NCBI GenBank assembly: GCA_002269645.1
Contig: NIVC01000297.1
Location: 248,001 to 312,000 of the forward strand
Reading direction: 5' to 3'
DNA length: 64,000 bases
DNA from: Macrostomum lignano
Lineage: Eukaryota
Shown here: positions 1 to 40,281 of the stretch, piece after piece
Position numbering within the stretch: the first letter of the stretch is position 1
Layout: each line of letters opens with the position of its first letter
Notes under the pieces: model-generated
What the model saw: the letters and a program-made list of their open reading frames with translations, nothing else
Database searches by the model: none
Told to the model about the DNA's origin: nothing
Translations under genes and position numbers: made by a program

Positions 1-365
1 CGTTCATCCGGGGCTTGTTGGATCTTGTAACGCTTGCCACCTGCGAATCTGTTTTCTCCATCTCCGATGCCTGCTCCTCCGCTGCTTCAAACGCTCTCGC
101 TTTTCGCAGGGCTTCGTCCAAGGAAATGTTGGTCTCTTGGAGTAGCCGCCGTCGTAACTTGTCTGATGTACAGGTCGCTACAAGCTGGTCTCTGATAAGG
201 GAGTCCTTCAGATTTTCGAACTCACAAGCCTCGGCTGAAGCACGCATTCGTGAATACCAAGCTTCGATTTTCTCTCCTTGTTGCTGGATGCAGTTCCTAA
301 ATTGGTATCGAGCGAAGACGATGTTCTTTCTCTCGTCAAACTGCTGCTTTAAAGCATTTAGCGTG
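1..365 (-). mobile_element. gag: Ty3/Gypsy LTR-retrotransposon gag fragment, truncated at the Polinton end
   Basis: Minus strand translates openly as TLNALKQQFDERKNIVFARYQFRNCIQQQGEKIEAWYSRMRASAEACEFENLKDSLIRDQLVATCTSDKLRRRLLQETNISLDEALRKARAFEAAEEQ, the typical invertebrate Gypsy gag pattern (R-x-Q-x-x-GE, CEF, IRDQ, LRRRLL). It is missing from the ORF track because it has no start codon in the window. Confidence 0.7.
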
Positions 366-683: not shown

Positions 684-1235
684 TTACCGCAATCTAATAC
701 GCAGATAGTTCATCGCGAAAGAACGCAAACGATTATAACAGCGCTTAAACAGATTCTCGGCGCCACCACCACTAATCATGCTCGCTAGAAAATCCTTCAA
801 ACCACCACCACGATGCAGTTTAAAGTATAAATAAAACAAAACCCATATACCACAGTGCAGACTTGTTGGTTCTTGAATAGCAAAACGCGAATATTCCCAA
901 TTTCCCCCTCCACAATTCCGTATAAACCACCGACGTATTAACTCACATGGATTTAACCCCAAGGAATCGAAATACTCTCCCTTCCTAGAGCCCCTCCTAC
1001 CCAACCTAAAACCCCCCACCCATAACAAAACCCAATGAGAACCCGGCAAATTTGAAGTATCGGTATTCACGATCAGAAAATAATGCCTTCTGTCTCTCGG
1101 GATTCGCGGGATACTACTCAACAAATCGACAGGAAAAATACCCAAAAAACAAACGTCTTTAAAACCGTTACATAGAATAATCACAACACGTTGCAAGAAC
1201 AAGTTCGTTACACCTTCGCCTCGCCTCATTTCCAA
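684..1235 (-). CDS. Adenain-like (C5) maturation cysteine protease
   Basis: VNTDTSNLPGSHWV (His), YFDSLG (Asp) and QEPTSLHCG (Gln/Cys) motifs. Confidence 0.9.
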   Translation of the reverse strand: MEMRRGEGVTNLFLQRVVIILCNGFKDVCFLGIFPVDLLSSIPRIPRDRRHYFLIVNTDTSNLPGSHWVLLWVGGFRLGRRGSRKGEYFDSLGLNPCELIRRWFIRNCGGGNWEYSRFAIQEPTSLHCGIWVLFYLYFKLHRGGGLKDFLASMISGGGAENLFKRCYNRLRSFAMNYLRIRLR

Positions 1236-2548
1236 GCGGTTCCTGGCACAACGTCCCGCAGTTCGGTAATCTGTAGTTGCTTGTCGAAAACACCACCGAA
1301 AATAACGTTATAGACCTCCGCTGTAGCCGTTCCAAAACGCATCTCCAGTCGGACATTCCCTTCCTTATACAATTGTACCGCCGGCGCAACTCCCCCGTCA
1401 GATCCTAACGAATACGCGAGTATCGTATACCCTCCGTTGTAGTCCGCCATCGAGAACCCCAAATCCCGTCCTTGTAAATACAAACCCAGTTGTTGACGCA
1501 GAGTTGTATACTCCTTTGCACAATCCCCTGTGAAGTCGAATTGACTAGGCCGTGTCGGTACCGCCTCACCATTTACGTAAACTCCAACGCTGATCAAATT
1601 CGCATGCACGAAATTGAACGGATTTGTCGCCAGACTTCCATTAAATGCAGTATTTCCAACGACTACCACCAGCAAAAGACGTGGCACTCCGCTCGGAAAC
1701 AGATTTTCGTGCGTATGGCTTAACGACCCTTGCGGTATAGTGAACGTACCCAATGATAAACTGCGATGAGGGTACAAGGCATTATGGGTCTTCAAACCAT
1801 GTGCATGGGCTCCAATCACACTGGCAGATGGCTGAACATACCGCAAACGAAGCTCCGCACTCTGAATCTCAACCTCGTAATCCTTTAACACTGCCTCACC
1901 AATCTGTGCGGCACTTAACACGAATTTGCTCTTTGCCGGTAGTAACTTTATCCGCAAAGGCGTCTTTGACAACAAATACCGTGGCTGACGAAATAGATCC
2001 AAAAACAAAGGCCCTGAAACCGTACAAGTTCTCCCACCCGCAATTAGTGCCTGTCGCTTCACTCGCCCAACGTTCGCGACGCCGGTGGCATTCATTTTTC
2101 CAGCAGTGTCCTTGTAAAATCCCCAGGCAGCCAATCCGCCGTCTTGTCCCAACCGACCATACTCCAAAAGCGTCAGAAGCATGGCCTTGTACGGATACAT
2201 GAAGCTCCCGCCTTCAACGACCGTATCTCCTATCCGCAATTGCACGTCTTCGAACAGCGTACTCACCACCATGTTATTCAGACAGACATAGTTTTTCGCA
2301 GCATCCACAGCCCCTCCACTCTCGTCTACTACTCGGATTCCAACAGTTAGAACTGTTTCTTGTAAGTCGACATACAAATCTCCAGCCGGTACAATCTCGA
2401 ACTCAATTGGCCCTCCTTGCGTAATCCCATGTTGAGGCTGTATATCCGTGTAGCGACTGTCCACAACACTGAATTGTACTGGTGGGCTGTCAAATAACGT
2501 CAACTCACTTTTCAATCCAGCGACGTCAGGCCCCAACAACTGATCCAT
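1226..2548 (-). CDS. Major capsid protein (double jelly-roll, Polinton PY/hexon-like)
   Basis: 440 aa intact ORF; N-terminus KSELTLFDSPPVQ...PIEFEI...YVDLQET and FNGSLATNPFNF are characteristic of Polinton MCPs. Confidence 0.85.
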   Translation of the reverse strand: MDQLLGPDVAGLKSELTLFDSPPVQFSVVDSRYTDIQPQHGITQGGPIEFEIVPAGDLYVDLQETVLTVGIRVVDESGGAVDAAKNYVCLNNMVVSTLFEDVQLRIGDTVVEGGSFMYPYKAMLLTLLEYGRLGQDGGLAAWGFYKDTAGKMNATGVANVGRVKRQALIAGGRTCTVSGPLFLDLFRQPRYLLSKTPLRIKLLPAKSKFVLSAAQIGEAVLKDYEVEIQSAELRLRYVQPSASVIGAHAHGLKTHNALYPHRSLSLGTFTIPQGSLSHTHENLFPSGVPRLLLVVVVGNTAFNGSLATNPFNFVHANLISVGVYVNGEAVPTRPSQFDFTGDCAKEYTTLRQQLGLYLQGRDLGFSMADYNGGYTILAYSLGSDGGVAPAVQLYKEGNVRLEMRFGTATAEVYNVIFGGVFDKQLQITELRDVVPGTAWK

Positions 2549-2941
2549 CTACTTGCCAAACAAACTGAATAACTTTTTAGTCGTGGCGCTCGGCTTTTTC
2601 TTTTTACGTATGCGTCTAACTCGCCGACCACGTCCAACCTGTTTTTTTACCGCAGGTGTCTTTCTGCTTATACCCTTTTTCCTGACTCGTCGTCGCTTAA
2701 CCACAACTGGTCCATCAGTAGTCGTCAATCTACGTTTCTTACCCATTCCAATCGTCTTCTTCAGGAAGCTTAAACCGCCCTCTACTAAATCCTTCCGAGC
2801 TCTACGTAGCACGGGATATATCACTCTCTCTGTTAAATTCGTCAAATATCCGTATCCCTCGTACACAGGTATCGAACTCGACCCACCACCCGTCCGCGGC
2901 TGTGTACTAGGTCCCGAATAGAATGCAAAAACCGGATCCAT
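2549..2941 (-). CDS. Basic virion core protein (adenovirus pVII-like)
   Basis: 130 aa, very Arg/Lys-rich C-terminal half, xxGG putative protease sites (RTGG, VEGG); its stop TAG directly abuts the MCP ATG. Confidence 0.6.
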   Translation of the reverse strand: MDPVFAFYSGPSTQPRTGGGSSSIPVYEGYGYLTNLTERVIYPVLRRARKDLVEGGLSFLKKTIGMGKKRRLTTTDGPVVVKRRRVRKKGISRKTPAVKKQVGRGRRVRRIRKKKKPSATTKKLFSLFGK

Positions 2942-2970
2942 GAATGCCGAGCGAAACTATACGTCAAAAT

Positions 2971-4112
2971 CTACTTAAAGTGCTTTGCTAATACCCGTGC
3001 TGTCTCTTTATCTAGATCTGATTCAGCCAACCACTGACCTCTCGAGTCGGGCATTCCCTCCCACTTGACAAAATATCGCCTGCCCTTCTTCCCCATACGC
3101 TCAACACGCTCGACCCGATCAATTTTAACAACCTCCGCCTCAGGTTCAGCCACTAGAAGCAGTTCACCTTGGTTGAATCGACCCTCCAACACTGTCGAAT
3201 CGTCCTCGGGTCTAACAGACCATAAGACGGTGGCTTCGTAGAATACACCCGATGAATTCGATACACCCTATTACTCCATGTCGTTGTGTAACCCTTCTCA
3301 AATTTTCCCTTTTGACGTGCAAGTCGTACCCAATCACCAACCTTAAAACGCGGAATAGGCCTCACATCGTCGCCATACAACTCCTCCCACACCATGCCCT
3401 GCAGATGGCCATCCGCACTCACATCAATGGGGCTACGACCATTTAAACTGCGGTGTGGAGAGTTATTCAACGCAAGCTCTAATTTTGGTAGAACATCAAA
3501 CCACCGGGCCAGATTTCGAGTCCGAAATAGTCGTAGTAATCGCTCCTTCACGGTGCGTATCAATCGCTCAGCCATGCTCGCTTTGTAGGTACTCTGACTT
3601 ACGAAAAATCGTACGCCCTCACGCTTTAACATCGACTGAGTTTCTCGCCCAAGAAACTCTCGACCAGCATCGCCTTGTAAGTACAGCGGTTTAAACCCCG
3701 TGCGGAATATCTCATACAATACACGGCTCACCTCACTTGGCTTCTTCGTCTTCAAAGCTCTCAAGCGAGCCAACCTAGTGAAACAGTCGACTAATACGAG
3801 GATGTACCTGTAACCACGGTTTTCGTCCTGATATTGCGGTAAGTCTGCCAAATCAATCTGCATTTGAAATTTTGCAACGGGCGGTAGTTGTATTTTCGGA
3901 GTTTTGAACTTCCGATTCGACTTCTGGAACAGATGTATCTCCTTCGTCCTACGCACCCACTTGTCAACAACAGCCTTGGCTTTTTTTTGCGTTAACTCCG
4001 GATACCTCCGCCTCAAAACTCGTATAAATTGCTTCTTATTGCCACTAAACGCAGTAGGGCGTTCCAAGTCGAAAAATGCCACGTCCAGAAACTTAAAAAA
4101 AATCGCTTCCAT
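2971..4112 (-). CDS. Retroviral-type (rve) integrase with C-terminal chromodomain; one frameshift near 3200
   Basis: QIDLADL / LQGDAGREF / MAERLIRTVKE DDE motifs in ORF 3153-4112; chromodomain YFVKWEGMPDSRGQWLAESDL in overlapping ORF 2971-3192. Confidence 0.92.
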
Positions 4113-4139
4113 CCTCCGTATTAGCGACTCTCCAAATTT

Positions 4140-4313
4140 TTATGATGCAGAACCCACATTAGTATTGCAACAGTTAAAACTTGCCTTTACCGTTACGTCT
4201 CCGTCAGGCTCCTCTGCGCGCAGTACGCGTTCCAATAAATTCGCAATGCAACCACCCTCCCCCAAAAAACAAATTCTAAAACGCTTGTACAACCACTGAA
4301 ACACATTCGCCAT
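4140..4313 (-). CDS. Small hypothetical Polinton protein (57 aa)
   Basis: Hand-translated MANVFQWLYKRFRICFLGEGGCIANLLERVLRAEEPDGDVTVKASFNCCNTNVGSAS; fills the gap between two packed genes on the same strand. Confidence 0.35.
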   Translation of the reverse strand: MANVFQWLYKRFRICFLGEGGCIANLLERVLRAEEPDGDVTVKASFNCCNTNVGSAS

Positions 4314-4361
4314 CCCCAGACTCGATATATTTCACGTAAAATACAATGCTTATACATTACG

Positions 4362-5027
4362 CTAGAGTCTCATAATCTTCCAAGGCTTGCAAGTCCCCAC
4401 CGCGCGACTCTGACTCGGAGTAGGTTCCATGGGTGTTCCTTCCTCCAGAACGTTTCGCATATGCCGCCCTAGCATCGACGGTGGAATTGATTCCCTGCGA
4501 AGCAGTGAGACGAAACGTTCCAGCTCTGCCGCCGGAGGCGATCTCCCTCGTTTCAATGGTTGGTCGCGAGTGACATACTCTACTAGCTCGTCAAAATCTC
4601 CTCCTCCAATCTCATTCGCAGCACCTGTCAGCCTTGCCTTCAGACGGTCGAAACGTGGTTGTACATTACGGGGGAGTCGCCTCCCCTTCTCGGTCTCACC
4701 CTCCGTCGGGCCATCATGACCAACGGATGAGCGAACCTCTGGCGGGGTCTCACCATTCTTATTGTACAGAGACCGCGTTTGTAGCAACCGACTCTCCAAA
4801 TCAGTTCTTTCCAACTGTGCGGTTGTAGGCTGCAGACTAGTCGATTCACCAATCTCCCGGTCAAGCCTATTCATCTCACCTTGCATTTCAACAATATTCT
4901 TACCCAAAGCGTCCACAGGTCCGTCCAATACTCCCGTCCTTCGCTCATCTTTCGACGTACATTCCAAATAAGCCTGCAACGGCAGCAAAACCATTCGCTG
5001 AAGAGTTCCTCCTCTATTGACTGGCAT
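4362..5027 (-). CDS. Hypothetical Polinton protein (221 aa)
   Basis: Intact ORF packed 1 nt after the upstream stop in the structural cassette; no motif recognised. Confidence 0.6.
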   Translation of the reverse strand: MPVNRGGTLQRMVLLPLQAYLECTSKDERRTGVLDGPVDALGKNIVEMQGEMNRLDREIGESTSLQPTTAQLERTDLESRLLQTRSLYNKNGETPPEVRSSVGHDGPTEGETEKGRRLPRNVQPRFDRLKARLTGAANEIGGGDFDELVEYVTRDQPLKRGRSPPAAELERFVSLLRRESIPPSMLGRHMRNVLEEGTPMEPTPSQSRAVGTCKPWKIMRL

Positions 5028-5028
5028 A

Positions 5029-5466
5029 TTACCTACGCCGTCCGGCCCGAATTGCTCGAACTAGATTTGCCGTCCCCGCAGCCGTACCGGCCAATCCCGA
5101 TGTAATCCCTAGAGCCGTGCCAATGGCTGGCAAAGCAGAAATTATCGGAGCAAGAAACGGCAGGAAACCACCACGCTGTACCAAAATTTCCTTCCTGGCT
5201 CTAGTTGATTTTTTCTCCTTCAACAATTCTTGTATCGGTTTCCGATAGCGTTCTAAACGTTTCTTGTCACACGACTTTAACGGCACGCGTCCTTTTACGA
5301 TATTCAAAAGAAACTCAACCAGGCAACGCACCTCGCCCGGACTTAAACTTCGCAGAAATCGCTTGCGCTGGTCCAATCCCCGAAGCCTCGCGACAACTTG
5401 CAATAGGAAGGCACACTGGGACAATGATCGCGCGCTTTGTACGCTCTTTTCTGTCAGCCCGGTCAT
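5029..5466 (-). CDS. Conserved small Polinton virion protein with QRGG-FL site followed by a hydrophobic/amphipathic segment
   Basis: ILVQRGGFLPFLAPIISALPAIGTALG; this QxGGFL architecture is common in animal Polintons. Confidence 0.7.
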   Translation of the reverse strand: MTGLTEKSVQSARSLSQCAFLLQVVARLRGLDQRKRFLRSLSPGEVRCLVEFLLNIVKGRVPLKSCDKKRLERYRKPIQELLKEKKSTRARKEILVQRGGFLPFLAPIISALPAIGTALGITSGLAGTAAGTANLVRAIRAGRRR

Positions 5467-5510
5467 TGTCTATCATGCCTTCTACTGATTCCGACTGTAC
5501 TTGCTTATAA

Positions 5511-6467
5511 TCAATCGTCTCGTACCCTGAAGTGCAGCACAGCAATCACATGGCTTCCATCAGGGAAATTCAAATCTTGCCCCCGTTGGTCGGCCAGACG
5601 AATGGAGATCTCATTAATGTAGCTCCGATTTGTCCGCAAGTAATATGGCGTCTGCAAAGCATTTCCGTCTCGTCGAAATATTCCGTTCTTTTCCTGGCGA
5701 AACTCAACCACGCGAAGTAGCGGAACCTGACGACTTCCAACCATTTGATATTCAACAATGTCGCTATAGCAGTACATGTAAACACTCCGCAGTATCGCTT
5801 CGGGTATTCTATCCAAATAGACCTTCGTCAGACCCCACGCACGATTTTTCCTCCAATACTCAACCACCTCCTTTAACGTATCCCCGGCAGGCCGTATTAC
5901 CTGCGTACTCTTCATCCAGACGGCGAAACCAGGTTCCAAGACAGCACGAAAATCGTACCAATTCGAATCTAATATACCTGCCTCGTCCATTGCATTCGTT
6001 ATGTTCGTCCAGGATTCACCCGCCGCATCCGCGGGTTGGGTGCGTCCGTCGTGAGCTGTCAAACCCCACGTACTGAAACCAAAGCATGTCAAAAAACTCC
6101 TTGGCAGTTCAATGCCCATACGTCGGCTGCCGGAATTTCGCAAATACCAAACATATGCTTTAGTAGCCGGCGTCCACGACAAGTGTACCTCCAAATCATC
6201 GGCCTGCCAGACCTTACCCAAGAAGACTTCATCTGTTTTCTCGATAATTTTCTCGATGTTGCAATAATATATCACCTTCACCTCTTCTCGAAGTTCCGCC
6301 GAGGAAGTTTCCGCCGGCGGGCTGTTACATAGCAAATCCACCAAAGCCACTTCATACTTCCCAGCCGGCGCTAGATTCAATGGTGTAGTTAGCCGCACCC
6401 GAAACTCGTGCGCAGAATTGGTCGGATAACTACGATCGTTTGACGGAATAAACACAAAGAAACTCAT
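5511..6467 (-). CDS. Minor capsid protein (penton, single jelly-roll)
   Basis: N-terminal FxxxxPSN...PTNSAHEFRVRLTTPLNL...YEVAL and C-terminal YSDIVEYQMVG...LLRVV...ISIRLADQRG...VLHFR motifs. Confidence 0.8.
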   Translation of the reverse strand: MSFFVFIPSNDRSYPTNSAHEFRVRLTTPLNLAPAGKYEVALVDLLCNSPPAETSSAELREEVKVIYYCNIEKIIEKTDEVFLGKVWQADDLEVHLSWTPATKAYVWYLRNSGSRRMGIELPRSFLTCFGFSTWGLTAHDGRTQPADAAGESWTNITNAMDEAGILDSNWYDFRAVLEPGFAVWMKSTQVIRPAGDTLKEVVEYWRKNRAWGLTKVYLDRIPEAILRSVYMYCYSDIVEYQMVGSRQVPLLRVVEFRQEKNGIFRRDGNALQTPYYLRTNRSYINEISIRLADQRGQDLNFPDGSHVIAVLHFRVRDD

Positions 6468-6497
6468 AATCTCACCCCATAAGCTGTAGCCGCTTCC

Positions 6498-7219
6498 TCA
6501 AAACTTGCTTATAATATCCTCCTCCTTGATAGTCTCCGGACGCATATAAACAACCTGGTGAGTGTCACTCGGAAAGACATTCGTCCGTATGCGTATCATA
6601 TCCGGCGTGTCCTGTCGTAAGTCTATGAAGAGATAGCTGAAGGCCTTGTCACCCGTCGCGTCGTCATAAGCCTGCACCAGAAATCTACTAGCTCGGGGTA
6701 CATCTGCCGACCCAAATGTTCAACGGCGCTACGATCCCTAACATTTCGGCTTAAACAGATATAACTCGTCGATAAACTTCTTTTTCTTGCCTCAGGATCC
6801 GCAGGGTCAAACAAATTTTGGCACAAATAAAGACAAGTCAATGGCGTATGATGAGCCAATTTGGTGAATACAGCGGTAAAAGCGCGTTGCTTTGCAACTT
6901 CACCCTGCAAATCATCAACAACGACTAAATCGTGCGGCTTGAATCTAGCCAACAACTGATCGGGGAATCCCTGTACGAAGTGACATTCGCCACTTCCACC
7001 CAATGTCCAACATTCTCGAACTCGTTTTTCCTCAGACGAATGTAACTCTGTACCGTGACACCAAATTAGACGCCTTGGTACTACTCGAAACAGACCCAAG
7101 CGCTCCCTTACCAGTCGAAGCACCCATTCAGTCTTTCCCGAATTCGAAGGACCTGCGACGATAAACGTCGAGTCATGAGCAAATCGCAAGTCGAATGTAC
7201 GCCTGTCCATTCTAGGCAC
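6498..7219 (-). CDS. FtsK/A32-like genome-packaging ATPase; one frameshift near 6690
   Basis: Walker A GPSNSGKT, Walker B VVVDDL, HH...QNLF motif; the shifted frame continues AYDDATGDKAFSYLFIDLRQDTPDMIRIRTNVF to a stop at 6498-6500. Confidence 0.9.
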
Positions 7220-7778: not shown

Positions 7779-8394
7779 TCACATGTTAGTGCTGCCCATG
7801 CCACCCGTCTCGCGAACCGCCACCGGCTCCGGTTGTCGGTGCCACACCCCCGGCAGCTGGCCCTCGCGAGCTCGACCGACTTCTACCGGGGGCGTGACGC
7901 AGCGCTCCAGAATCAATTGGGCCACGCTGGTGGCACACGACAGATGAACTTTCTCATCTGACGTGTTGTGCAGGATCACGCGGAGTTCCCCGGTATAGTC
8001 CGGGTCAACCACGCCACCCTGCACATTTAGGCCTCGGTTGGCCCAACTGGACCGGCTCGCTATCCGACCATAGGTGCCGGCGGCAGCATCACCCGGAGGC
8101 CGGTGCGAATGATGGCCGTGTCAAAGGCCTCCACAGTGCGGTCTTCGCACGTGGCTAGGTCGTAGCCCACCGACCCGGCCGTAGCTCGCGAGGCATCACT
8201 GCCCCGGCATCCGTGAGCACTACGCGCAGCGGGACCGTCGAGCAAGAGTCGGAGCTCATAGTGGCTGCGGGATCATAGTTCATCTTATGCTTAGGAGGTT
8301 CTTCGTCCTCTAAAATAAGTCTAGTACTACCCGCGTAATCCTCGTCCCAATCAAAAAAACTAAGCCTAGTACTAATCCCCTGCACTGCCATCAT
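7779..8394 (-). CDS. dut: dUTPase; two frameshifts (~8175, ~8075)
   Basis: Motifs across the shifted frames: SVGYDL, GRIASRSS, GGVVDPDYTGE, VAQLI, RETGGMGST. Confidence 0.85.
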
Positions 8395-8519
8395 AGGCCT
8401 AGAAAAACGAAGAGAAAGAAGGAAAGGCGGATTCTTGCATATACATTCGATAATTGCGCGCATATATTGTGTGCAGAAAAAGCATAAACAGACAGAAAAC
8501 AGAGAGCGGAGAGAACAAG

Positions 8520-11500
8520 TCAAGTCAACCGCCAATGACCAAATGGGAGGGATGAGTAGGGATCGAGCCAGGCTCGCTTCGTGTCGAAGAAGCTAAGCGC
8601 CTGCTTGCGCTGCTCAAGAAGATAAATCTTCTGTCGTCGCGAAGTAATCGTCCGCATCGTTACATGCTCCAAAACTCGATCCTTCAACACACTCAAAAAT
8701 ACATTGTGCTTCATACCTCTTACAATCGACTTCGACACGCCCTTGCAACGCACAATCTGACAGAGGCTTTCCTTTGCATACACCATTGAATAGTTTTTCG
8801 GGCGTAGAAATGCAAACTCCAACAGTGTACAACCGGAAACTTCATCTTTCCAGGCCATTAACTTCCCTTTATACTTTGTTGTATAAAGCGGATGAGAAGG
8901 TGGATAATTACTAGTGTCTAACACACCGCACTCCACCAAGTCTTTAAACAATGTCTCCTGAGGACTCGTCTCCGGGTCGGCCATAACCAATGCCAGGATC
9001 AAACTATCCGTATCTCCACCAAGCACGCGGCAGAAGCAAGCGACCTATGGCATTGAATCCTTGAATAGAAAAACTCGTAGACAAATGTTTTCGCAAGGTC
9101 CAGAATAGCGCTACCAATCAGAATTGGCTTGTTTAGCAATACTCGACGAGGAGTCAAACTCACGCCCGCTAGACGATCTGTATACAGAATCACGTCCATA
9201 AACTCCTCTTTAGCGACATACGTTTCCAACTTCTCGGCAGTAGTACACATGCGATAGCTGAGTCGGTCTCGAACTCGCTGCAGAAACTTGCCGTACACAG
9301 CATTGTTCAATAGTTTAAAGAAATCTCGATCGAAATCGCTAGTCGCCTCAGACCGCCGACGAATATTATGTTCAATATATTCCTGTAGAATAGGACCTTC
9401 TACGAATTCGAGAACACGATTAACCCGCGTCACGCGCATGCCTAACTCGAGGTAAAGACGCAATGCTCGATGATGTACAATGTACCCTGTTTTATGCGTA
9501 ACAGAGCCAATTAGTTTCCTTGTCGGAGAAGTGAATCGTTTTACGTCCTCGTATACCTCCGCATTCCTCTTCCTGGGATCAAGCTGGCGTTGCAGACAAA
9601 CCCAATCCTGCTTCATATGCTCGGTTAAATAGGCACTATCAATTCTTTCATGGCCAATAGCCAGAGGTAGATCGGCAGTTGAGTCGTGCAAAAACTTTGG
9701 GTAGTAAAGATCGACATTCAATAACGCCCCTCGTCCATTCGAGCAATAGCTAGACAACCAAGCCAAAAACTTGCTCGACTTGTTCGGATTTTCCAACTCA
9801 GCTGCCTCATCATCAACTGATAGATTTTCAATCACTTCACGGGGCAACCAACGATAGGCCTTATACGGCAGCGCCTGCACCATACAACTGGCATAAAGAG
9901 AATTAGCATCAAGGTAGGCCAAGTGAGTGCCATACGGTGCATTCCGCCGTAGTTCTCTTAAATGTCGTCGTCGTCATCCAGCTGCCGACGCATTCTTCTA
10001 CCATTGGATTATTTGCCGTAGTAAGATGGCGAGTGCCGAAACTGAACCCACCTCGAATCGAAGCTTCAACCTCGGAGTACATACGAGCGTCTGTAAACAA
10101 CTCGATCGGCTTCTTCACCTTCAACAGACACGCAGCCAGACTATACATTGGCGATCCGAGAAAATGACACACATCCAAACCGTATTCTCGAATTGCAGTG
10201 CGACGAAAACTCTCAAATACGTCGCATAACAGTAGTACATCCAACAGTAAATACGCAGTCAGATAGTCACGCAAATTGGCACAATCAAACTCTTGCCAAC
10301 TCTGCTGAGCGCGTGTGTACTCCTCCTTAGAACACTCTTGCCGGGTCATTGCGTCGTAAAACAAATCTCGCGATGGCAGTTCAGTCACACTGTCCAACTT
10401 CTCTTCAGAGTCCAAGTAACAATACGGAAACACTCCCTTCTGCTGCAGAGTAGACAGTTGGAGTTTAGGATAAACATTCAGCAAATCTCGACAGTGTACC
10501 AATTGTTCCTGCGTCAAACGGTTTGCCAGACTAGCTAGACTTGTCGACAAGTACGCAAAACGTGTCCTTGAAGCAGATTCAAACCNNNNNNNNNNNNNNN
10601 NNNNNNNNNNNNNNNNNNNNNNNNNNNNNNNNNNNNNNNNNNNNNNNNNNNNNNNNNNNNNNNNNNNNNNNNNNNNNNNNNNNNNNNNNNNNNNNNNNNN
10701 GCCAGACTAGCTAGACTTGTCGACAAGTACGCAAACGTGTCCTTGAAGCAGATTTCAAACCAAACAAAATTCTTCTTCTTCTGCTTTTGTTGCTGCGGCC
10801 GTTGACTGCCAACCAGCAGCGGTACCTTGAACTTTAATGAAAACGTCTTAAACCGTTCCCTAGACTCGGGAAGAACGTGCAGTTGAACGTCGTCTTCTCC
10901 ACTAAACACATTGTACACCTCACGAACAATTATTTTACCGTCATATCCTCGAAGATTGTGCAGGTAGACGATAATTCGATAGCGCTGCAGGGCAAGTTTT
11001 CGATTGCACGACATGCAAGCCATTCCACGTGGAAGACCACTCAAATGACAATGATCCCAGACTTGAGACTCGTCAGCGGAAAACTCGCGACGACAGACGT
11101 AGCATCGATCTGCGCTAGGACGCTGACCTAGATACTTTCTAAGCATTGGTCTATAAGTCATCTTGCTAGTCGCATTAGTTACTTCGAATGCAAGCTCGCG
11201 CAGAGCCAAGAGAAACCTGCCAATACAATCTGTTGTGCCAGGCGTAGAATAAAACAACTTGCATGGAGTATTGTATCTGCTCAACAAATCCTCCCTCGTT
11301 ACACTATCCAAATCCGGATCGACAACCAAACGAAAGGCCACACAAACGGGCACGTGAATTTGTAAAACACGGCTGTTAGCCGTAGGCACTGGCAGGCCCT
11401 TGACGAGGCCCCTCGATGCCTTTTCAACAGGTACAAGTAGACTCTCAATATCAGCATAAACCAAATACAGCGGCGGCAGTCGAGTCTCGTAGGCTGAAAA

Positions 11501-13142
11501 AGACAAAAGCTTTGCCCTCCTCTGGTAAAACCTCCTCCGTGACTGGCTTTGGCGTTCGAATGAAGCCGCCGCCGCCGCCGCCGCCTGGTTGCTCCTCCGT
11601 CGTCTGGCCACACACGTGTTCTTTCAAGATATAATCCCAAGACGTGGTGTGAATAAAGCTCGCCAGACATTCAGGACAATAGCGCCGGCGTTTAGCACGA
11701 GAACTCAACAGCCTATCCAGATTTAGCACCGCCATGTAGTGTCCATACTTGAATTCTGCGTAAGGTGGTATGAACAGACAATTGACTGGCGCAAGGTCAC
11801 CAGTGGAACGACGAAAATTAAAAAACAGCACGGCAGTATTCGTGGCATGACTCCAGACAAACACACGCATCAGTCTAATTCGAGGGTTCAGCCGGCAAAA
11901 CTTTCTGTAGCTCCCAATTGAGTGACGAGTCACTCCGGCGCGCGTAAATCGAAAGCTTTTCAGCCAAGGCCTGTAAGACGCCTTTCGCCTTTTACGGGCT
12001 TGCCCTTCGACCTGTGAGGAAAAGACGCTCGACACGACAGCATACATAAAACAATCATGCTGATCTGCTCGGTGCGGGCGTAGAAACAAAACCGCTCCCG
12101 GCATACGACCAACAGCCAGTGGAACGCGGAATGGAACGGAACGGGTCGGAGCGGATTCTGTTGGACCGCCGCCCGCCTGCGCGCCCGCCGCCGCCGCCGC
12201 CGCCACGCCCGCCGCCACCACCACCGCCGCCCCGCCACCCGCTCCCCACACGTCCTGCTGCTGTTGCCGACGACTGCTAGTGTTCGACTGTAGTAGTAGA
12301 TATTTTCGGCGGAATATGCACAGCATAACGTCGACCTTGACAACGCCGAGGAACTTCCAGTTACTACCTCGGGACTGAAAGTTGTCTAATTTAGCTACCA
12401 GATCGTTTGTTGCCTCGCTGTACCATTGGTTGAAAACGTCCTCAGAGAGAAGAAGTACACGGCGGCCGGCGGCTGGAGCATTCGCATCGAAGGAGACCAT
12501 AACGACTTTGGAATTGAAAAAGGGCGCGATTACTTCTACCTCTTCGTTGTGGGGGGATTCACCAACAGCCGTGTCATTGGCGGGGGGATAACGAGTACGA
12601 TACATTTTTACATTAAGATGTATACATGTACGGAGTAAACAGTCCGCAGATCCGAGAGAGTTAAAAAGACGAAAAAGTGGAACTTGCAGTTGTGGAAGTA
12701 ACTCGCTGGGTGGTTCGGTCTCGCCATCGTCCTCGTCCAGCAGAGGCGTGAACGTCAGAAAGTTCGCCCGACCTCGGTGTGCGGACTCGGTATGTTGTAC
12801 CGACCAGCCTGGTGGAGTGTCCTCTTCGATTAGCCGACGCACTGGTTCTCGAAGTAAAAGTTGGTCTGGTTGATAGCACGAGCCATTGTGCGAGTGCCCA
12901 TGGAGGGCGGCTTGACTGTTGAATCTCTGCCGGCACACAGGGCATCTGATTTGTTTCGTCGTCGTCGTCGACGGCTGGAATGGTGTTGGCGATTGTTGGC
13001 GACGGGGTGGTTGTGATAATCGCCTAAATAGTTTGCTCGGTGGCAAAAATAAGGAAGGAATGCACAGCCTTAAGTTTGGTGGACAGTCCGAAAATGTCCT
13101 CCGCCGCGTGGTTAAACTGTATTTTACTTTGCAGAGATACAA
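8520..13142 (-). CDS. polB: Protein-primed family B DNA polymerase (pPolB) with N-terminal terminal-protein region; split by several frameshifts and an N gap
   Basis: In order: FQSRGSNW, GHYMAVLNLDRLL, VYADIESLL (Exo I), DHCHLSG..RG.AC..CN zinc finger, HNLRGYD (Exo II), KGVFPY, YLLLDVLLLCDVFE (Exo III), IRGG, YLDANSLY (A), KLLNNAVYGK (B), GDTDS (C), PKNY, KGV. True start not resolved; the track start is TTG. Confidence 0.93.
10586..10700. other. Assembly gap (115 N) with a 61-bp sequence duplicated on both sides
   Basis: 10525-10585 and 10701-10761 are the same sequence apart from homopolymer lengths (aaaa/aaa, tt/ttt). Confidence 0.95.
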
Positions 13143-13435: not shown

Positions 13436-14818
13436 TCAGAGCTCACGACGAATGATGCCGCCAACAAGATGGGCTAGATCGGTCGTAGATGTATCCGATC
13501 TGATTAGAATTTCGTGTACGTTCGAGTAGTCCTGGTAGTGGCGTGTAAACGCCTCGTCTAGCGACCGTAGATAGTCCAGGGAGATGCCAGTCTCCTCACC
13601 GCTGCGTCCGCGCTGCGCGATGCGTTGAATGGCCAACTCCGGGTCAATGCGCAGGTAAATAAGCGTCGTGTTCGCGCCGGTAAAGGGTACCCCAGTCGCT
13701 TCGAGGACGTCTAGTTGGCGCTGAGCAATCGCCCATTCGGTGTCAGACAGCGAGCCTTGACGGTGTAGTACGTCTTGGAATGCTCGAGCCGACCCGAGGC
13801 AGCGGTCGAGGATAACCACCTTGTTGTTGGATTGTTGGTTAACCTCATTCCGGACCTGGGTGGTAACACAAGATTGGCAAAAGTAGCTATACCGTGCGTG
13901 TCTTTCGACATTGGTTGTACATGTAGTAGGAGCTATACGAAAGGAATTACTAGATACTATAGTACCACTTACTTTGCTGTCTCTGTCGAGCAAGTCGTGG
14001 GAGACGTGCTGTTGGAATGCGACGGCCGGAAGCTCGCCTCGATAGAATGACTGAAGCAGATTTACCGAGTCCGGGAGGAGCGGGTGTCGCGCGTACTGGT
14101 GAACAGGCTCGGGACCGAAGACGGCTTTGTCGGCCCAACCCTCGAGGCGGGAGGTGAGAGCCAGTTCTCGAAGCAACGTCGACTTCCCGGCACCGATTAC
14201 GCCCTCCAGGAGAAAAATGCGAGACTGGCTCGTCATATTGGCTAGAATTGGAACAAATTCTGGTTTCGGAGCGGCTTCCTGACACAATTGTTTAACAATG
14301 TTGATCATTTCTAAAATCTGGCTAGTAGTCTTTGCACCTATTATAACGATCTTAAGGGAATGAAAAATATTGCACACCGTCCTATTGAGTGGAGCAGTAC
14401 TACGGAGGGTGACGGCTTGTGGGAATATCTCCGCGTCGTAATACAGCCGAGCTGTGCGAAAAGGCCCGATAAAGTTTTTCAAGGTCGAAAATTTGAGTCC
14501 AGGATAGTGGAGCAGACCAACGGTTGTAGAGCTGATTATACGAATCGATGTTTTGATTAGTTTAATTACTTTAAGGTGTATGAAATTCAGGGCACGTAGA
14601 AGTTGGACTCGGGATCTACAGCCATAAAGCGTGAGTAGTCCGCCGGGGTAGAACTGACATGAAAATTGGGGCAGTCCGATACGAAGCATACTTGGCTTGG
14701 CGGAGTATAATTTGGAGGGGATTCCCGCCTGGCCTAGACGTTTTTTTAGCCTATTTAAATCTAACTTTTCTCCTGGAGGGGTACTCGTTCTGGCTTGCAC
14801 TATTAGTAGGACCAATCT
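13436..14818 (-). CDS. TBP-like domain in frame with a deoxynucleoside/thymidylate kinase
   Basis: N-terminal ~175 aa shows both TBP repeats (KLDL..., QFYPGGLLTLYGCRS; YDAEIFPQ..., NIFHSLKIVIIGAKT). C-terminal part has P-loop LEGVIGAGKST, EPV, ILDRCLGS, YLRIDPELAIQRIAQRGRSGE and DYLRSL of the dNK family. Confidence 0.85.
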   Translation of the reverse strand, partial: RLVLLIVQARTSTPPGEKLDLNRLKKRLGQAGIPSKLYSAKPSMLRIGLPQFSCQFYPGGLLTLYGCRSRVQLLRALNFIHLKVIKLIKTSIRIISSTTVGLLHYPGLKFSTLKNFIGPFRTARLYYDAEIFPQAVTLRSTAPLNRTVCNIFHSLKIVIIGAKTTSQILEMINIVKQLCQEAAPKPEFVPILANMTSQSRIFLLEGVIGAGKSTLLRELALTSRLEGWADKAVFGPEPVHQYARHPLLPDSVNLLQSFYRGELPAVAFQQHVSHDLLDRDSKVSGTIVSSNSFRIAPTTCTTNVERHARYSYFCQSCVTTQVRNEVNQQSNNKVVILDRCLGSARAFQDVLHRQGSLSDTEWAIAQRQLDVLEATGVPFTGANTTLIYLRIDPELAIQRIAQRGRSGEETGISLDYLRSLDEAFTRHYQDYSNVHEILIRSDTSTTDLAHLVGGIIRREL

Positions 14819-14956
14819 CTGAAAAGAATAAATACGAGAAAAAATTCAGTATAACGGTTAAGATTTTATATATTTCTGGGTGATGCGTTTCCGTTTACGG
14901 AGAATGGTAGTTAGAGTTATAGGTATAGCTTCCCGCCACCAAGTGAACGCTAACGG

Positions 14957-16047
14957 TCACTGTGCGAAGACTTCATCATCTTCGCTGTCCATGGGCTCCG
15001 TCGAGGCCCCCGAGTCCACGTCCCCTAGTGCTGGGTTGGAGGCTGCAGCTTTACCCGCTTTGGGGACAGTATTGGTAGCACCGCTTACAAGATCTTTGAC
15101 GGGAGTCACCGTGATCCAGTCTTCAGCTGCTGCTGCTGTTGTTGCTGCTCCAGTCGTCTTGGTGGGGCGTTTGGCGGGGCTGCGACGAGTTGGGCCTTGT
15201 CGTCGTTTTCGTCCGCTAACTGGTTTCACTAGCGTCGTCGTAGTTGTTGACTCTTCTTCCTCAGTTGCGGCGGTGGCGGCGATTGGAGTCGACGTAGTTG
15301 GGATGTGAAATCGCAAAGCTTGGGCTAGCATCGGCAGGTGTTTCGGGTCGTCGTCGACCAGTGTCAGCGAGCGAAGGGCGAGGCCGAGGCGCCATGTCTT
15401 GCTTTCCTTCTGACGATAAAGACTTGTGAGCTGAACGGAGAGATGGTAAAGACCGCTAAGTCCCCTCAGCTCGCTTGTGTCAACTTCACGTGGGTGTTGA
15501 TTAGGCAGTGCTCGAAAGGTGAAACATGGTAGTGTAGGTTTTATGGCAATCCACTGGGCAAAGCCCAGGTCGCCTTCCTCGGTGGCGCGGGAGATGCGAA
15601 GCAGCGGCATCGGATCGCCCATTTGCTTTAGTTTGATAGCGATGCCTCTTTCGACTTGTCTAGCGAGAGCAAGGGGAATGAAAAGCAGTAAGAATTCATG
15701 GTCTAGTGAGTATGCACATGTAACAAGGATGGCGAATTCTTCAACTTACTTGATGCATTGTAGGAATTTGCTGCAAAAGGCCGATGATGACAGTCCGATG
15801 GCCACCGCCTCACGGTCTCCGGCTAAAAACTCTCCGGCATCCTGTATTTGGACACCACGAAGAATCTCGACTGGGGTCGTGGTTTGAATCACTAGTGGGG
15901 ACCTCCTGTCGACTTTGGGGGCGTCCACGTTACGCTACGGAAGGTGCAGCTTGCTGTAGGAGCGTTGGGTTCGCCTAGGTGGAGATTACCAACGTCGGCT
16001 TGGATAGCACCCGGTTGGAATACGGATTCGGCAGCGAAACCAGCCAT
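14957..16047 (-). CDS. Putative ssDNA-binding protein (T7 gp2.5/NCLDV-SSB-like); intron 15660-15749 and one frameshift near 15920
   Basis: Kozak aacaccATGG at 16047, TATAAAA at ~16138-16144; GTAAGT...pyrimidine tract-CTAG 90-nt intron removes an in-frame TAA and joins QCIK to QVERG; PLVIQT motif, beta-rich core, acidic tail DSEDDEVFAQ. The gene model is better supported than the product call. Confidence 0.55.
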
Positions 16048-16742
16048 GGTGTTGATCTTGCCTTGCTCGGAACGCGTGTTTGAAGTGCCTTCTATTTGGA
16101 GTCTTAATGAAGATTTTATTTCGTTTAGGGGTACCTATTTTATAGAGTTGTTTTTTAAGGGGGGCGTGGGATCGTTGAAGATTGTAGTTGGTCTTCTGGC
16201 TGGTGAATTCCCAGGGACTTTGGACATTTTGTTAAAGAGTTTAGGGTTGGTGAGATGCGATGCAAATATACGTGCGTTAAGAGATAATTTTGGCATTATA
16301 GTAGTGCGTGCAAATCGGTGAATTGATTTGACATGCTATTTAAGTTCACTAATTTGGTGTTCACTAGTGGAATAGGAAATTGATCTCACTCGATGCGTTC
16401 GGGTTATAGTAGGCTAGGGTCGGTGAATTGACTGCATGCATTTCATGGGCGTAAATTGCGTGCTCATTGCTGGATTGATAAAAATTTGGAAATGCCTGCA
16501 CCCTAGTTTGGGTCACGGGTGACGTTTTCCCATAGAGGTCGGTTTGTAGAAAGATACCGAAAGGGGGGTTTTTACTGGCTTCGGCATTGAGTGGTTGGTT
16601 GACAGCGCGGCGCTATCTATATGCTATATGCCGATAACGGAAATTGTGCAATCCCCCGCGTGGGTTGAGTTTCATATGAAGGGGAGATCTAGGTCATTGA
16701 GTTAGAGAGGAGACTTGGAACTGTTCGAACGATAGATTGCGA

Positions 16743-18481
16743 ATGACAATGGCCGAGGCTCAGGACGGATCGCGGGAAGAGTATTGGAAGGCACAGGAGG
16801 GATACTTTGAAGAATTGGAACGCAAATTCGCTTTCGTGGACTACGGTAGCGATCGACTCCGACGAGTGTCGCCCTTGAGTAGACCGTCTGGTAAGTATAG
16901 TTTTTTATGACTGCCACTCCTCTTGTATGGCACCGTATTTTGATAGGGCATCATATACCGACTTCAGTAGACGGGCAGCAAGACCTCCGTCCGGTCGCGG
17001 TAGTTCCGCCTAGTGTGCGTGGCCGCGAGGATCCCTATGACGGGGAAATTACTATAGGGAGGAATACGTTCCCACCAAGGACAGAGGTATGTAATATGCA
17101 TTCTGAGTTCGATTGCTTTGTGGTAGTATAACTTACTATGCCTTCATCTACTGGTAGGATTACTTCAACGCAAGGACGGCAGCTTTGGAGGAGCTACGTG
17201 AGGGGACCCGAGGTTCGCTATCGTGACGCGGGTTACGACGTAAGATTGATTTTTAAGTTAGTAGTGCCTGAGCTTGTACTTGACGAGTTCATTTTGCCTT
17301 TTTTAGCAACTATGCATGAGTGACCGAGTAGTTTTGCAGCACCAGTGGGCGACGGCAGTTTGTACGCGAACGCATGAACTGGTGCCGGAGATGGTGGCTC
17401 GGGGAAGGGAGGTACGAGACAATATTCGTATGCTTTTCTTATCACATATTGCATTAATAAATAAAGAATTTCCATTCTCATTTTAGGAGTTTTTAGCCAT
17501 GGTGAGTGGAGATGTGCTTTTTGGTGTGGTATAATTCACTCGTCCGTATGAAAATAAATTTACTTGTCTGTTCTTTATTCTTGAATCGTAGATTCGCGGA
17601 CGTGGTCGTCGGACTCGAAACGAGGTATGGATATTGTTATTTTAATTGAGTGTGATCCTAGTTCAATATTGTAGCCCAGTTGTATTTTCTGCTGTTGCAT
17701 ATTCCAGGCTGCGTGTGTTTCGTCCAGCCCCACACAGCTTACAATGGTCAGTAGTCGCTTGGCATTGATTAAACATTTAAGATATAAAGGCTGGAATCTT
17801 ATTTGACATTTCAGGCGAATTGCGCGATCGGAGAAGGGCGAGCTCCCGGACCACCGCAGCCATGTGTCCCGGTTAGTGATACATCGAAAACCATGCTCTT
17901 TATTTTGGCGGTATGTACATAAGTAGCTCGGTTTGGGAGGTGCTCTTCACGTGCCGGTTTAAGATGGAGTTACGAGGTTTTATGGTAGTAGAATTCGTGT
18001 TATTTAGTGTGAGACGGGACCGTTAATGCATGAACCAGTTCTACTTTATGCTGCCACGCATTCAAGACTGCATGGCATTGATTAAAACTTGAGGGTGTAA
18101 AACAGTTGAAATCTTATTTTTTTAAATTGCAGACAAATTTCGTGTTCGGACGGGGGCGGACTCCTGGACCGCCGCAACCTTCCACGGTTGGTGTTACGTA
18201 GAAGAATATGCTCTTCTTTGTAGGGTGTTCACAGTCATATCGGGTGGGGGGGGGCAGGTTGGTAGTGGTTTAGGGTGAAATATGCAAGTCTATGGTGGTA
18301 GAGTTTGTGTTACAACAAAGAGTTATTTATACAATCAAATTTCAGATTCCGAAGCCGCCATCCGGAAGTGGATTCCCTGGTGGTGGTAGGGTTAGTAAAT
18401 TTTATATTGATTGCAGCGTAGTAAATTGACCTGGTAAATGTATGTCATCTTCTTTGGTTTCAGGATGCGGACCTGTCGTAG
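16743..18481 (+). CDS. 11-exon gene of unknown function inside the Polinton (~244 aa)
   Basis: Exons 16743-16890, 16947-17086, 17158-17239, 17307-17411, 17487-17501, 17592-17624, 17708-17746, 17815-17871, 18133-18186, 18346-18390, 18464-18481. All ten introns are GT-AG and the frame is maintained if one extra G is removed from the G-run near 17203. Confidence 0.72.
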
Positions 18482-19448: not shown

Positions 19449-20030
19449 TCAGTCAATCAACACGGCCGTGGACGATAGTGGAAAGGTCGGCATGGACGGC
19501 GAGCGTGGTGTTGAGGTCCATGTTGGGGCAGCACGGCGGTTTGGGTTCGGTCCGGGTGAAGGTGTTTCGGTGCTGACTCTGCAAATAAGAGCGGAATGCT
19601 TCGGTAGTTGGGGGCCATGTTTCGGATAATGATTAGAATTTACTTACGTCTGAGTGGCTTGAGAATACTCTTGGCTACGGAAGTCATTCGGACGGCGGGA
19701 CTCGGGAGAGCGGATGCGTTTGTAGCAGTGGTGAAGCAAAGCGAGCACCAGGAACAGAAAAATAATTAGAAAAACGACCTTCAGGGCCACCAGTTGCGCA
19801 CTTGCTAGGTTGATTAGTTTGTTGACGCTTTCTCCGATTGCAGTAAACATTTGGGTATTATTGTATGCCTGGACGGCTATACGATTTCGGAGCTCTTCTT
19901 GGGAGTAATGGGAATTCTCGGATAATTGTCTGACAACTGCCGAAAGTTGTCTGGTAGTTTCCGCGTTGTTTTGGGTGGCTTGGGCCTGTTTAATAAACAC
20001 AGCCAGTATTTTTTGTAGTCGGTTCGCCAT
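19449..20030 (-). CDS. Two-exon single-pass membrane protein (~170 aa) inside the Polinton
   Basis: Exon 20030-19648, intron 19647-19579 (GTAAGT...TTTGCAG), exon 19578-19449 in frame; TM segment VALKVVFLIIFLFLVLALL followed by HHCYKRIR; AATAAA downstream near 19000-19025. Confidence 0.65.
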
Positions 20031-38566: not shown

Positions 38567-40281
38567 GTGCCACCCGACATCTGTAGGCTCAGCCATGTAG
38601 TTTCCCAGAGCCCCCGAGATCCGGCCGACCCGCCCCCCAAAATGGAATTCGCCATGGCTGGCTTCGGCGAGATGAACGGCAACCCCGACGCCTGCCCGCC
38701 GCCGCACTCTTACAGGTCGCATCATCACCAGCCGCCGCTGCAGCACCCGCGAATGCTCGACCAGCCGCCGCCGCTCGATGACGAAGCCACGGCGATTGCC
38801 GATGGCGTCGTGGCGACCCCAGCAGGGAATCGTCGGGGCGGCGCCGCGGCCAGTTCCGACTGCGAGCGGGTGGTCATCAACGTCAGCGGTCTGCGGTTCG
38901 AGACGCAGCTGAAAACTCTGGCCCAGTTCCCGAGTCGTTGCTGGGCGACCCTCTCAAACGGAACCGCTACTACGACCCGTTGAGAAACGAATACTTTTTC
39001 GATCGTAATCGGCCTTCGTTCGACGCGATTTTGTACTTTTACCAGAGCGGCGGCAGGCTGCGCCGGCCCGTTAACGTCCCCATTGACGTCTTCACGGAGG
39101 AGATCCGCTTCTACGAGCTTGGCGAGGAGGCCATCGAGAAGTACCGCGACGACGAGGGCTTCATCAAAGAGGAGGTCAAGGTGCTGCCCGAAGACGAGTT
39201 CCAGCGCAAAGTCTGGCTGCTGTTCGAGTACCCGGAGAGCTCCATGGCAGCCAGGGTGATCGCCATCATCTCGGTTTGCGTCATCCTGCTCAGCATCGTG
39301 ATCTTCTGCATGGAGACTCTGCCCCACTTCCGGCACTACAAAGTCGTCAACGACACGTTCGGCAACGTCACCAGCCACGCTATCGAGGAGGATGACATAC
39401 CGCAATTTGACGAGCCCTTCTTCGTCATCGAGACAATCTGCATCATCTGGTTCACCTTCGAGCTGCTGGTCCGGTTCGCTTCGTCGCCGGAGAAGCTCGC
39501 CTTCTTCAAGAACATGATGAACTCCATCGACATCGTGGCCATCATTCCCTACTTCATCACGCTCGGCACGGTGATCGCAGACGACAGTCGAAGCAACCAG
39601 GCGATGTCTCTGGCCATCCTGCGGGTTATCCGTCTGGTGCGAGTGTTCCGAATCTTCAAGCTGAGCCGCCACTTCAAGGGACTGCAGATCCTCGGCCAGA
39701 CTCTCAGAGCATCGGTTCGAGAGCTCGGCCTGCTGGTGTTCTTCCTGCTCATCAGCGTGATCCTCTTCTCCTCAGCCGTGTACTTTGCCGAGGCCGACTC
39801 GGCCCTCAAGTCGCATTTCGACTCGATACCGTCGGCGTTCTGGTGGGCTGTGGTCACCATGACAACGGTTGGCTACGGCGATATGCGGCCCGTGACGGTC
39901 TGGGGCAAGCTGGTGGGGTCCCTGTGCGCCATAGCCGGTGTGCTGACCATAGCCCTGCCCGTGCCAGTGATTGTGTCCAACTTCAACTACTTCTACCACC
40001 GGGAGACCGAGTCCGAGGACAAGCAGACCTACGTGCACATCCAGTCCTGCCCGGCCTACAGCCGCGACTCCAACGCGGCGGTTCAGAAAAGCTCGCTGGC
40101 CTCGTTATCTGACGTCCTGGAAGCAGATCCAGAAGCTACAGAGGCGCTGCAGCAGCAGCCTATCGAACCGCAGCAGAGCACGCGGCGACAAAATCACTCC
40201 AAACAGCAGCAGCAGCAGCAGAATTCTGCAGGCACAGCAAGTCCCAAGTGTCCAGTTAGCTGCTTTGAAACTGACGTGTGA
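38567..40281 (+). CDS. Sh (KCNA): Intronless Shaker/Kv1 voltage-gated potassium channel; 1-nt frameshift near 38930
   Basis: T1 domain [23 protein letters not shown] then LLGDP...[16 protein letters not shown]; S4 [21 protein letters not shown]; pore TMTTVGYGD; PVP hinge; C-terminal PDZ ligand ETDV. ccg-agtcg lacks one G for P-E-S. Confidence 0.95.

Follow-up and report, generated by a model that had tools for sequence, protein, structure and literature searches.

A spliced eleven-exon gene in the variable slot of a Polinton-type element from the flatworm Macrostomum lignano

In adenoviruses, spliced regulatory genes are found near the genome end in the terminal early units E1A/E4, and spliced leader exons serve the replication genes of the E2 replication unit. 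Among elements of the Polinton/Maverick type, intact vertebrate Mavericks are reported to have no introns (PMC8097293), and nematode Mavericks are described as having a variable GC-rich region beside the TIR with intron-containing cargo (10.1101/2022.07.12.499685). The regulatory 'Oncoid' genes of adintoviruses are typically located upstream of PolB (PMC8502044, section 3.2); in the same paper, TBP appears in a figure legend in connection with non-animal MELD viruses and 'splic' nowhere in the main text. The words intron, splic and exon were likewise absent from a paper on coral polintoviruses (PMC11131425). Two further papers describe group I introns in cryptophyte PLVs (PMC12220804) and introners in dinoflagellate Polinton-like elements (PMC11957031). 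Finally, schistosome micro-exon genes (MEGs) are defined by a coding region consisting mostly of very small symmetric exons (3-81 bp), and are characterized by signal peptides, long introns (0.2-5 kb) and exon skipping (PMC4350168; 10.1101/2023.06.21.545858). In the literature surveyed we found no description of the gene presented here or of Polintons in Macrostomum lignano, although annotated spliced Polinton genes may be contained in supplements.

The element and the gene in its variable slot

The DNA analyzed, hereafter the window, is a stretch of 64,000 nucleotides of Macrostomum lignano, a free-living flatworm; the closest database protein to a neighboring ORF, with 95% identity, likewise bears the name of this species. 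It was found to harbor the following element, whose (AGT)2...(ACT)2 termini are a Polinton hallmark, described for Mavericks in PMC8097293.

366..20671, no strand assigned: Polinton/Maverick-type element of 20.3 kb, with 64-bp TIRs starting AGTAGT and ending ACTACT

A 6-bp target-site duplication was not found, and the flanks differ in both of the full copies examined. Pfam identified PolB (PF03175, E=3e-7) and an integrase (PF00665, E=3e-7). The ORFs at 684-7210, conserved in sibling subfamilies, gave no Pfam match; going by motifs, size and order only, they would encode putative capsid proteins, a packaging ATPase and a maturation protease. The putative capsid ORF had 0 matches among viral contigs. 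In the window copy, pPolB (8155-12605, minus strand, with an N run at 10586-10700) is spread over several frames, and indels in this region, e.g. at 11504, are contradicted by the DNA-like sequencing run X15 and resemble assembly errors. The left flank (1-365, minus strand) encodes a gag-like peptide, presumably akin to that of an LTR retrotransposon, and the Polinton thus seems to have been inserted into another mobile element. Dense tandem arrays with units of 8-24 nt fill the host region at 21469-57000, within which an ion-channel exon (PF00520) lies at 39244-40281.

All recognized genes of the element are on the minus strand except the eleven-exon gene, in agreement with the original prediction of a single gene on the opposite strand. 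This gene is situated upstream of PolB, whose start lies at a distance of about 4 kb, in a variable slot near the right terminus of the element. Sibling subfamilies, with 65-75% identity in the putative capsid protein, have the same gene order and a different slot content:

C1680 (G000:C1680:63532-64415): two exons encoding 267 aa, acidic/Ser/Gly/Arg-rich, no Pfam match
C272 and C889: spliced plus-strand gene
C2529: intronless ORF of 181 aa
C277 and C1975: empty slot

Candidate downstream exons, one of them 15 nt, occur in the C272 slot gene (G000:C272:381101-389600, reversed, ~2820-3660), and in a high-copy subfamily (G000:C84 and G000:C424) the slot is occupied by an array of degenerate ~35-40-nt repeats together with AT-rich sequence that has apparent small exons. 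Homology between our gene and the slot genes of the siblings was considered and rejected, as the scores were reached by 82, 224 and 409 of 1000 shuffles, and a GHHI stretch in common with a slot gene was not significant either (176/2000 shuffles).

The gene itself (16743..18481, plus strand) has the following layout, in which all ten GT-AG introns agree in donor and length with those originally proposed:

16743..16890 (+): exon 1, 148 nt, ending in phase 1; acidic/aromatic, predicted helical; 60% identity in the diverged subfamily
16891-16946 (+): intron 1, 56 nt, phase 1, donor GTAAGT
16947..17086 (+): exon 2, 140 nt
17087-17157 (+): intron 2, 71 nt, donor GTATGT
17158..17239 (+): exon 3, 82 nt, frameshifted near 17204 in the window copy; 84 nt in 7/7 sisters
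17240-17306 (+): intron 3, 67 nt, donor GTAAGA
17307..17411 (+): exon 4, 105 nt, symmetric; numerous amino-acid changes between close copies
17412-17486 (+): intron 4, 75 nt, donor GTACGA
17487..17501 (+): exon 5, a micro-exon of 15 nt, a length it also has in the diverged subfamily
17502-17591 (+): intron 5, 90 nt, donor GTGAGT
17592..17624 (+): exon 6, 33 nt, with a basic RG patch, putatively NLS-like
17625-17707 (+): intron 6, 83 nt, donor GTATGG
17708..17746 (+): exon 7, 39 nt here vs 48 nt in the diverged subfamily
17747-17814 (+): intron 7, 68 nt, donor GTCAGT
17815..17871 (+): exon 8, 57 nt, Pro/Gly repeat unit 1; missing from the diverged subfamily
17872-18132 (+): intron 8, 261 nt, donor GTTAGT
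18133..18186 (+): exon 9, 54 nt, tandem duplicate of exon 8
18187-18345 (+): intron 9, 159 nt, donor GTTGGT
18346..18390 (+): exon 10, 45 nt
18391-18463 (+): intron 10, 73 nt, donor GTTAGT
18464..18481 (+): coding part of exon 11 with stop, 18 nt

The ten introns are thereby packed into 1.74 kb, eight of them being 56-90 nt and the longest 261 nt, while exons below 81 nt are confined to exons 5-10 (243 of 736 coding nt). GC content is 58% in exons vs 37% in introns, and the contrast obtained with the exon mask (0.217) is matched by no circular shift of more than 20 nt, the best of which reached 0.108. A donor G is found at +5 in 10/10 introns and at -1 in 9/10. Taking exon 3 as 84 nt, intron 1 is in phase 1 and the other nine in phase 0, as originally proposed, and exons 3-10 are all symmetric, which has a chance of 1.5e-4 for random lengths, the sites having been picked post hoc. 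The proposed run of symmetric exons 4-10 is hence correct as far as it goes, and was drawn one exon too short. On the other hand, the removal of a single G near 17203, suggested as a repair of the frame, does not fit an exon 3 of 82 nt vs 84 nt in the sisters, with the break near 17204. The uncorrected product of the window copy terminates at codon 119. With splice sites selected in hindsight, it is RNA data that put the gene model, which we regard as almost certainly real, to a proper test.

The spliced product has 244 aa with an X at the exon 3 break (~245 aa), and consists of a net acidic first two thirds, the RG/Arg patch of exon 6, and a tail of 34% Pro+Gly with PxxP repeats. A hydropathy scan detected no signal peptide or transmembrane segment (best -0.47 in the first 30 aa; 19-residue mean 0.73), and a regular-expression scan of the protein gave no LxCxE, CR1 or CXXC motif. 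The C-terminal DLS was discarded as a CtBP motif, lacking the leading Pro and not being retained in the diverged subfamily. For exon 1, a model built from a 3-row alignment has two helices (pLDDT 73, pTM 0.35) and no fold match. Sequence searches, of low sensitivity since they employed single exons of 35-49 aa, gave 4 candidates and 0 matches for exon 1 and 3 candidates and 0 matches for exon 4 in a set of 5.8 billion sequences, 0 matches for an exon-1 profile in 1.84 billion representatives, 0 Pfam matches for exons 1, 2 and 4, no usable match in the ESM Atlas, a best E of 0.36 among PDB sequences, and 0 matches for exon 1 among viral contigs. Three loci in metagenome contigs matched over 24 aa; one of these, L104, is located on the strand opposite the beginning of a long ORF of bacterial type and was dismissed as a chance match.

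Splicing of the gene and of its neighbors

Splice joints were sought in the assembled contigs, which drop rare isoforms, of four (X1, X2, X7 and X15) out of 24 listed sequencing runs. None of the runs is recorded as RNA, and typing is by guess only: 14 guessed-RNA runs contain 0.17-0.34 of the words of the region, and four others about 0.8. X2 (study P2), X7 (study P3) and X1 belong to the RNA-guessed runs. Exact joints at introns 2, 6, 8, 9 and 10 were found in contigs of both X2 and X7, and at introns 4, 5 and 7 in X2 only, the 15-nt exon 5 being situated between joints 4 and 5. The intron 3 acceptor is used in X7 together with an in-frame donor 12 nt upstream of the predicted one; a GT at this position is carried by one sister copy, and the alternative donor may therefore be copy-specific. 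In total, 8/10 introns are joined exactly, with the acceptor of intron 3 in addition, in the RNA-guessed contigs of two studies. Intron 1 removal was seen neither among the listed joints nor among three more from a summary table, and the listed contigs that reach this intron (X1, X2, X7) run through or into it; in the X7 contig, the record in question has intron 2 spliced. Of the junctions predicted, eight were thus recovered in full and one by its acceptor, and the first was not. No joint of this gene occurs in the DNA-like X15 or in X1, the latter set aside as splicing evidence for this gene, as it covers the gene unspliced and has the deletions of the C273 copies. An exon-skipping joint was likewise not found among 18 joints (15 listed, 3 from a summary table) in the contigs of the four runs.

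Splicing, which the original prediction took to be exceptional within the element, also occurs in its minus-strand genes, where four more introns are spliced (15660-15749, 14819-15088, 13856-13972 and 19579-19647). The genes in question, with the region separating the first from the eleven-exon gene, are:

13436..16101 (-): leftward spliced unit with an upstream exon, an ORF weakly resembling viral DUF2738/DUF5871 proteins, a TBP-like domain of two repeats and a deoxynucleoside kinase
16100..16742, no strand assigned: intergenic region between the eleven-exon gene and the leftward unit, a putative divergent promoter judging by gene orientation only
19579..20030 (-): convergent gene for a small protein that has one coiled-coil-like and one hydrophobic, transmembrane-like stretch

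The acceptor position and phase of intron 15660-15749 are common to 7/8 loci, as predicted from sequence in the siblings. For the second exon of the gene at 15089-16101 (-), the Atlas gave weak leads (0.83-0.89) pointing to viral proteins, of which some carry the label DUF2738/DUF5871; DUF2738 is a viral ssDNA-binding family. Splice 14819-15088 leads in frame into the TBP-like domain and then the deoxynucleoside kinase (dNK), and this TBP-like/dNK fusion (14240-14818 on the minus strand, on to 13436) has a complete reading frame only via splicing. The TBP-like domain scores 28 bits against Pfam TBP, above the cut-off, and 13/13 of its matches among PDB sequences are TBP (E 0.002-0.04); with Foldseek, a low-confidence model had TBP as top matches, none below E 0.001. 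The gene has 73 genome matches over many Polinton subfamilies. In the small convergent gene, intron 19579-19647 is spliced in X1, X2 and X7, and its product is possibly a membrane or fusion protein; a homolog is found in the subfamily C272/C889. Altogether, about 6 kb of the 20-kb element hold 14 short introns, 12 of which are joined exactly in contigs of the RNA-guessed runs.

Genomic copies and the origin of exons and introns

A genome search identified 11 loci: besides the window copy there are seven close sisters (94-100%), and a diverged subfamily (~69% alike) contributes the other three. All of these are Polinton copies or a deleted derivative, and ten adjoin the TBP-like gene of the element. 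The derivative (G000:C273:264560-267760) holds this gene and the right terminus only, and is preceded by about 600 bp of unrelated sequence, which in the other C273 copy likewise takes the place of the promoter region. Single-exon queries of the one host genome found no non-viral homolog, and the proposed capture of a host gene thus gained nothing from the search for a source locus or from the distribution of the copies. Exon 3 is 84 nt in 7/7 sisters, making the break near 17204 private to the window copy. Since X15 contradicts other indels of the window, this break may itself stem from an error of the assembly.

Both splice dinucleotides are intact in 61/64 introns of the seven sister copies. 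Of the eight close copies, two have an uninterrupted reading frame and six are disrupted by stops, frameshifts or the loss of a splice site, while all three copies of the diverged subfamily are decayed. At about 30% divergence the exon layout is nevertheless retained between the window gene and that subfamily: over 162 codons the mismatch is 0.32/0.23/0.42 by codon position and dN/dS is 0.42 (p=2e-5), and in the aligned columns 6/7 donors and 6/7 acceptors are kept, including both sites of intron 1. By sequence comparison, this demonstrates protein-level constraint between subfamilies. The intron interiors have a mismatch of 0.29, not above codon positions 1-2, so that of the expectation that splice sites would be conserved and introns diverge, only the former part was borne out. 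Comparison of the close copies gave a pN/pS of 0.26 in exons 1-2, which look constrained, and of 0.8-1.8 in later exons, and exons 3-6 differ from one sister by 11 nonsynonymous and 2 synonymous changes, vs 8 and 15 in the middle of pPolB, all of these being small counts. Only 4/19 indel sites fall in exons, though these make up 42% of the length (p=0.046). Copies that are 99-100% alike indicate a recent spread.

Exons 8 and 9 appear as parts of a tandem duplication on the plus strand (17757-18002 vs 18070-18312, within 17757..18312; 168/237 aligned bases identical, 71%), which spans either exon with its flanking intron and whose score was reached by 0/200 shuffles. Intron 8 additionally contains a remnant of the boundary between intron 6 and exon 7. 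Exons 8 and 9 are both missing from the diverged subfamily. As far as the aligned copies tell, the demonstrated use of exon symmetry is the frame-safe gain and loss of whole exons over evolution, and not skipping. Out of 91 intron pairs, only introns 7/8 and 8/9, i.e. the local duplication, paired better than all 200 shuffles, and a genome search with the gene region gave Polinton copies only and no dispersed intron repeat family. An introner origin is therefore unlikely, as the introns are not a repeat family.

Interpretation and comparison with known systems

Our preferred reading, to which we assign a probability of roughly 0.55, is that of a transcribed, spliced, lineage-specific native accessory gene of a flatworm Polinton, likely encoding an intracellular, probably nuclear and partly disordered regulator. 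This retains the core of the original prediction, namely that the virus carries a spliced, RG/Pro-rich gene whose strand is opposite to that of the core genes. Host RNA polymerase II would read a divergent promoter in an adenovirus-like manner, leftward into the replication and transcription helpers and rightward into the eleven-exon gene, and the host spliceosome would remove the introns, as observed for most of them. The acidic-aromatic helical start, the basic RG patch and the Pro/Gly tail would be the build of a motif-based hub protein, which might act in the nucleus by binding host proteins via short motifs, thereby favoring expression or replication of the element, while the phase-0 exons would allow tail modules to be gained and lost over evolutionary time with the frame intact. 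Splicing of the short intron 1 may, as a proposal, gate the full-length protein. Any specific regulatory role, suggested by composition and position only, is considered clearly doubtful. The reading of a native gene is supported because splice joints occur in contigs of two studies and none in the DNA-like run, because splice sites persist among the copies and the codons are constrained between subfamilies, and because whole exons were duplicated and lost, siblings fill the slot with unrelated genes and an intron of the leftward gene is common to 7/8 loci; it is weakened because no homolog or fold supports any function and the Oncoid motifs are missing, and because intron 1 is unspliced in the listed contigs, the runs are RNA by guess only, most close copies are damaged, pN/pS is high in later exons and the intron interiors are no more diverged than codon positions 1-2.

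Instead of being native, the gene could be captured host cargo like the wasp and krma genes of nematode Mavericks, with a host source that is lost or too diverged, and it may then act on the host, e.g. as a selfish toxin/antidote, rather than in the virus cycle. Nematode Mavericks do carry intron-containing cargo in a variable GC-rich region by the TIR (10.1101/2022.07.12.499685), the ten introns far exceed the one or two of neighboring viral genes, and slot content is swapped among subfamilies. We still hold capture to be unlikely: all 11 loci have a Polinton context, the 1.84 billion representatives gave 0 matches, no enzyme domain was detected, and the native viral neighbors have the same short-intron type, conserved across subfamilies. 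Alternatively, a once-coding viral gene may now be mostly decaying, its intron-1-retaining transcripts giving a short peptide or a non-coding RNA. The unspliced intron 1 of the listed contigs, the damage in 6/8 close and 3/3 diverged copies and a pN/pS near or above 1 in later exons all point in this direction. Such decay appears distinctly improbable, however, given two fully open close copies, the recent spread implied by copies 99-100% alike, a pN/pS of 0.26 in exons 1-2 and the low share of exonic indels (4/19, p=0.046); some of the damage may also be assembly error, as window indels (e.g. 11504) are contradicted by X15.

Isoform production in the manner of MEGs, with symmetric exons 3-10 skipped in many combinations into a pool of variant effectors, would suit the eight consecutive exons that are multiples of three (chance 1.5e-4), the in-frame alternative donor at intron 3 in X7, and the 11 changing vs 2 silent differences in exons 3-6 (8 vs 15 in the middle of pPolB). 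It is set against by 18 joints from four runs' contigs with no skip among them, by the lack of a signal peptide or anchor, and by introns of 56-261 nt vs 0.2-5 kb in MEGs, and the alternative donor matches the GT of one copy and so may be copy-specific. We consider this reading very improbable, and the diversification by skipping that was first envisaged was not upheld in contigs which, admittedly, drop rare forms. A bolder combination, which we rate as a long shot, would join a TBP-like protein of the element's own to spliced early expression on the adenovirus model; regulated excision of intron 1 would turn the effector on, and skipping of symmetric micro-exons would diversify it. If true, a virus would harbor a system of micro-exon diversification whose evolution was independent of that of schistosome MEGs. 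More generally, since annotation treats Mavericks as collections of intronless ORFs, a gene of this kind would escape surveys built on ORFs; seemingly 'empty' accessory regions of animal Polintons may hide regulatory genes, and these elements depend on the nuclear splicing of the host.

Several known systems resemble the native accessory gene that we favor. Nematode Maverick cargo (wasp proteases, krma kinases) is likewise intron-bearing and located in a variable region by the TIR, next to Maverick core genes that are intronless; the flatworm gene differs from it in having no enzyme domain or host family and ten introns with micro-exons, and in that the native viral neighbors are spliced as well. 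With the Oncoids, it shares being a non-core gene upstream of PolB for a motif-type rather than enzyme-type protein, but it is without LxCxE, CR1 or CXXC. A run of small symmetric exons, a flatworm host and fast-changing middle exons recall the schistosome MEGs, from which the Polinton gene is set apart by its viral carrier, its short introns, the lack of both signal peptide and anchor, and the absence of skip joints in the contigs. The anti-silencing protein VANC of the VANDAL transposons (PMC5735166) is also an accessory protein of a DNA mobile element that aids the element's own expression; this plant system is compared by function and not by sequence, as a functional analogy only. The two adenovirus arrangements, E1A/E4 and E2, are paralleled by a spliced, putatively regulatory gene near the end and a spliced leader exon before replication genes, as a likeness without demonstrated sequence similarity, whereas the flatworm exons are far more numerous and smaller, and the element is integrated. 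What stands out in the flatworm gene is the intron density, the micro-exons and the RNA support.
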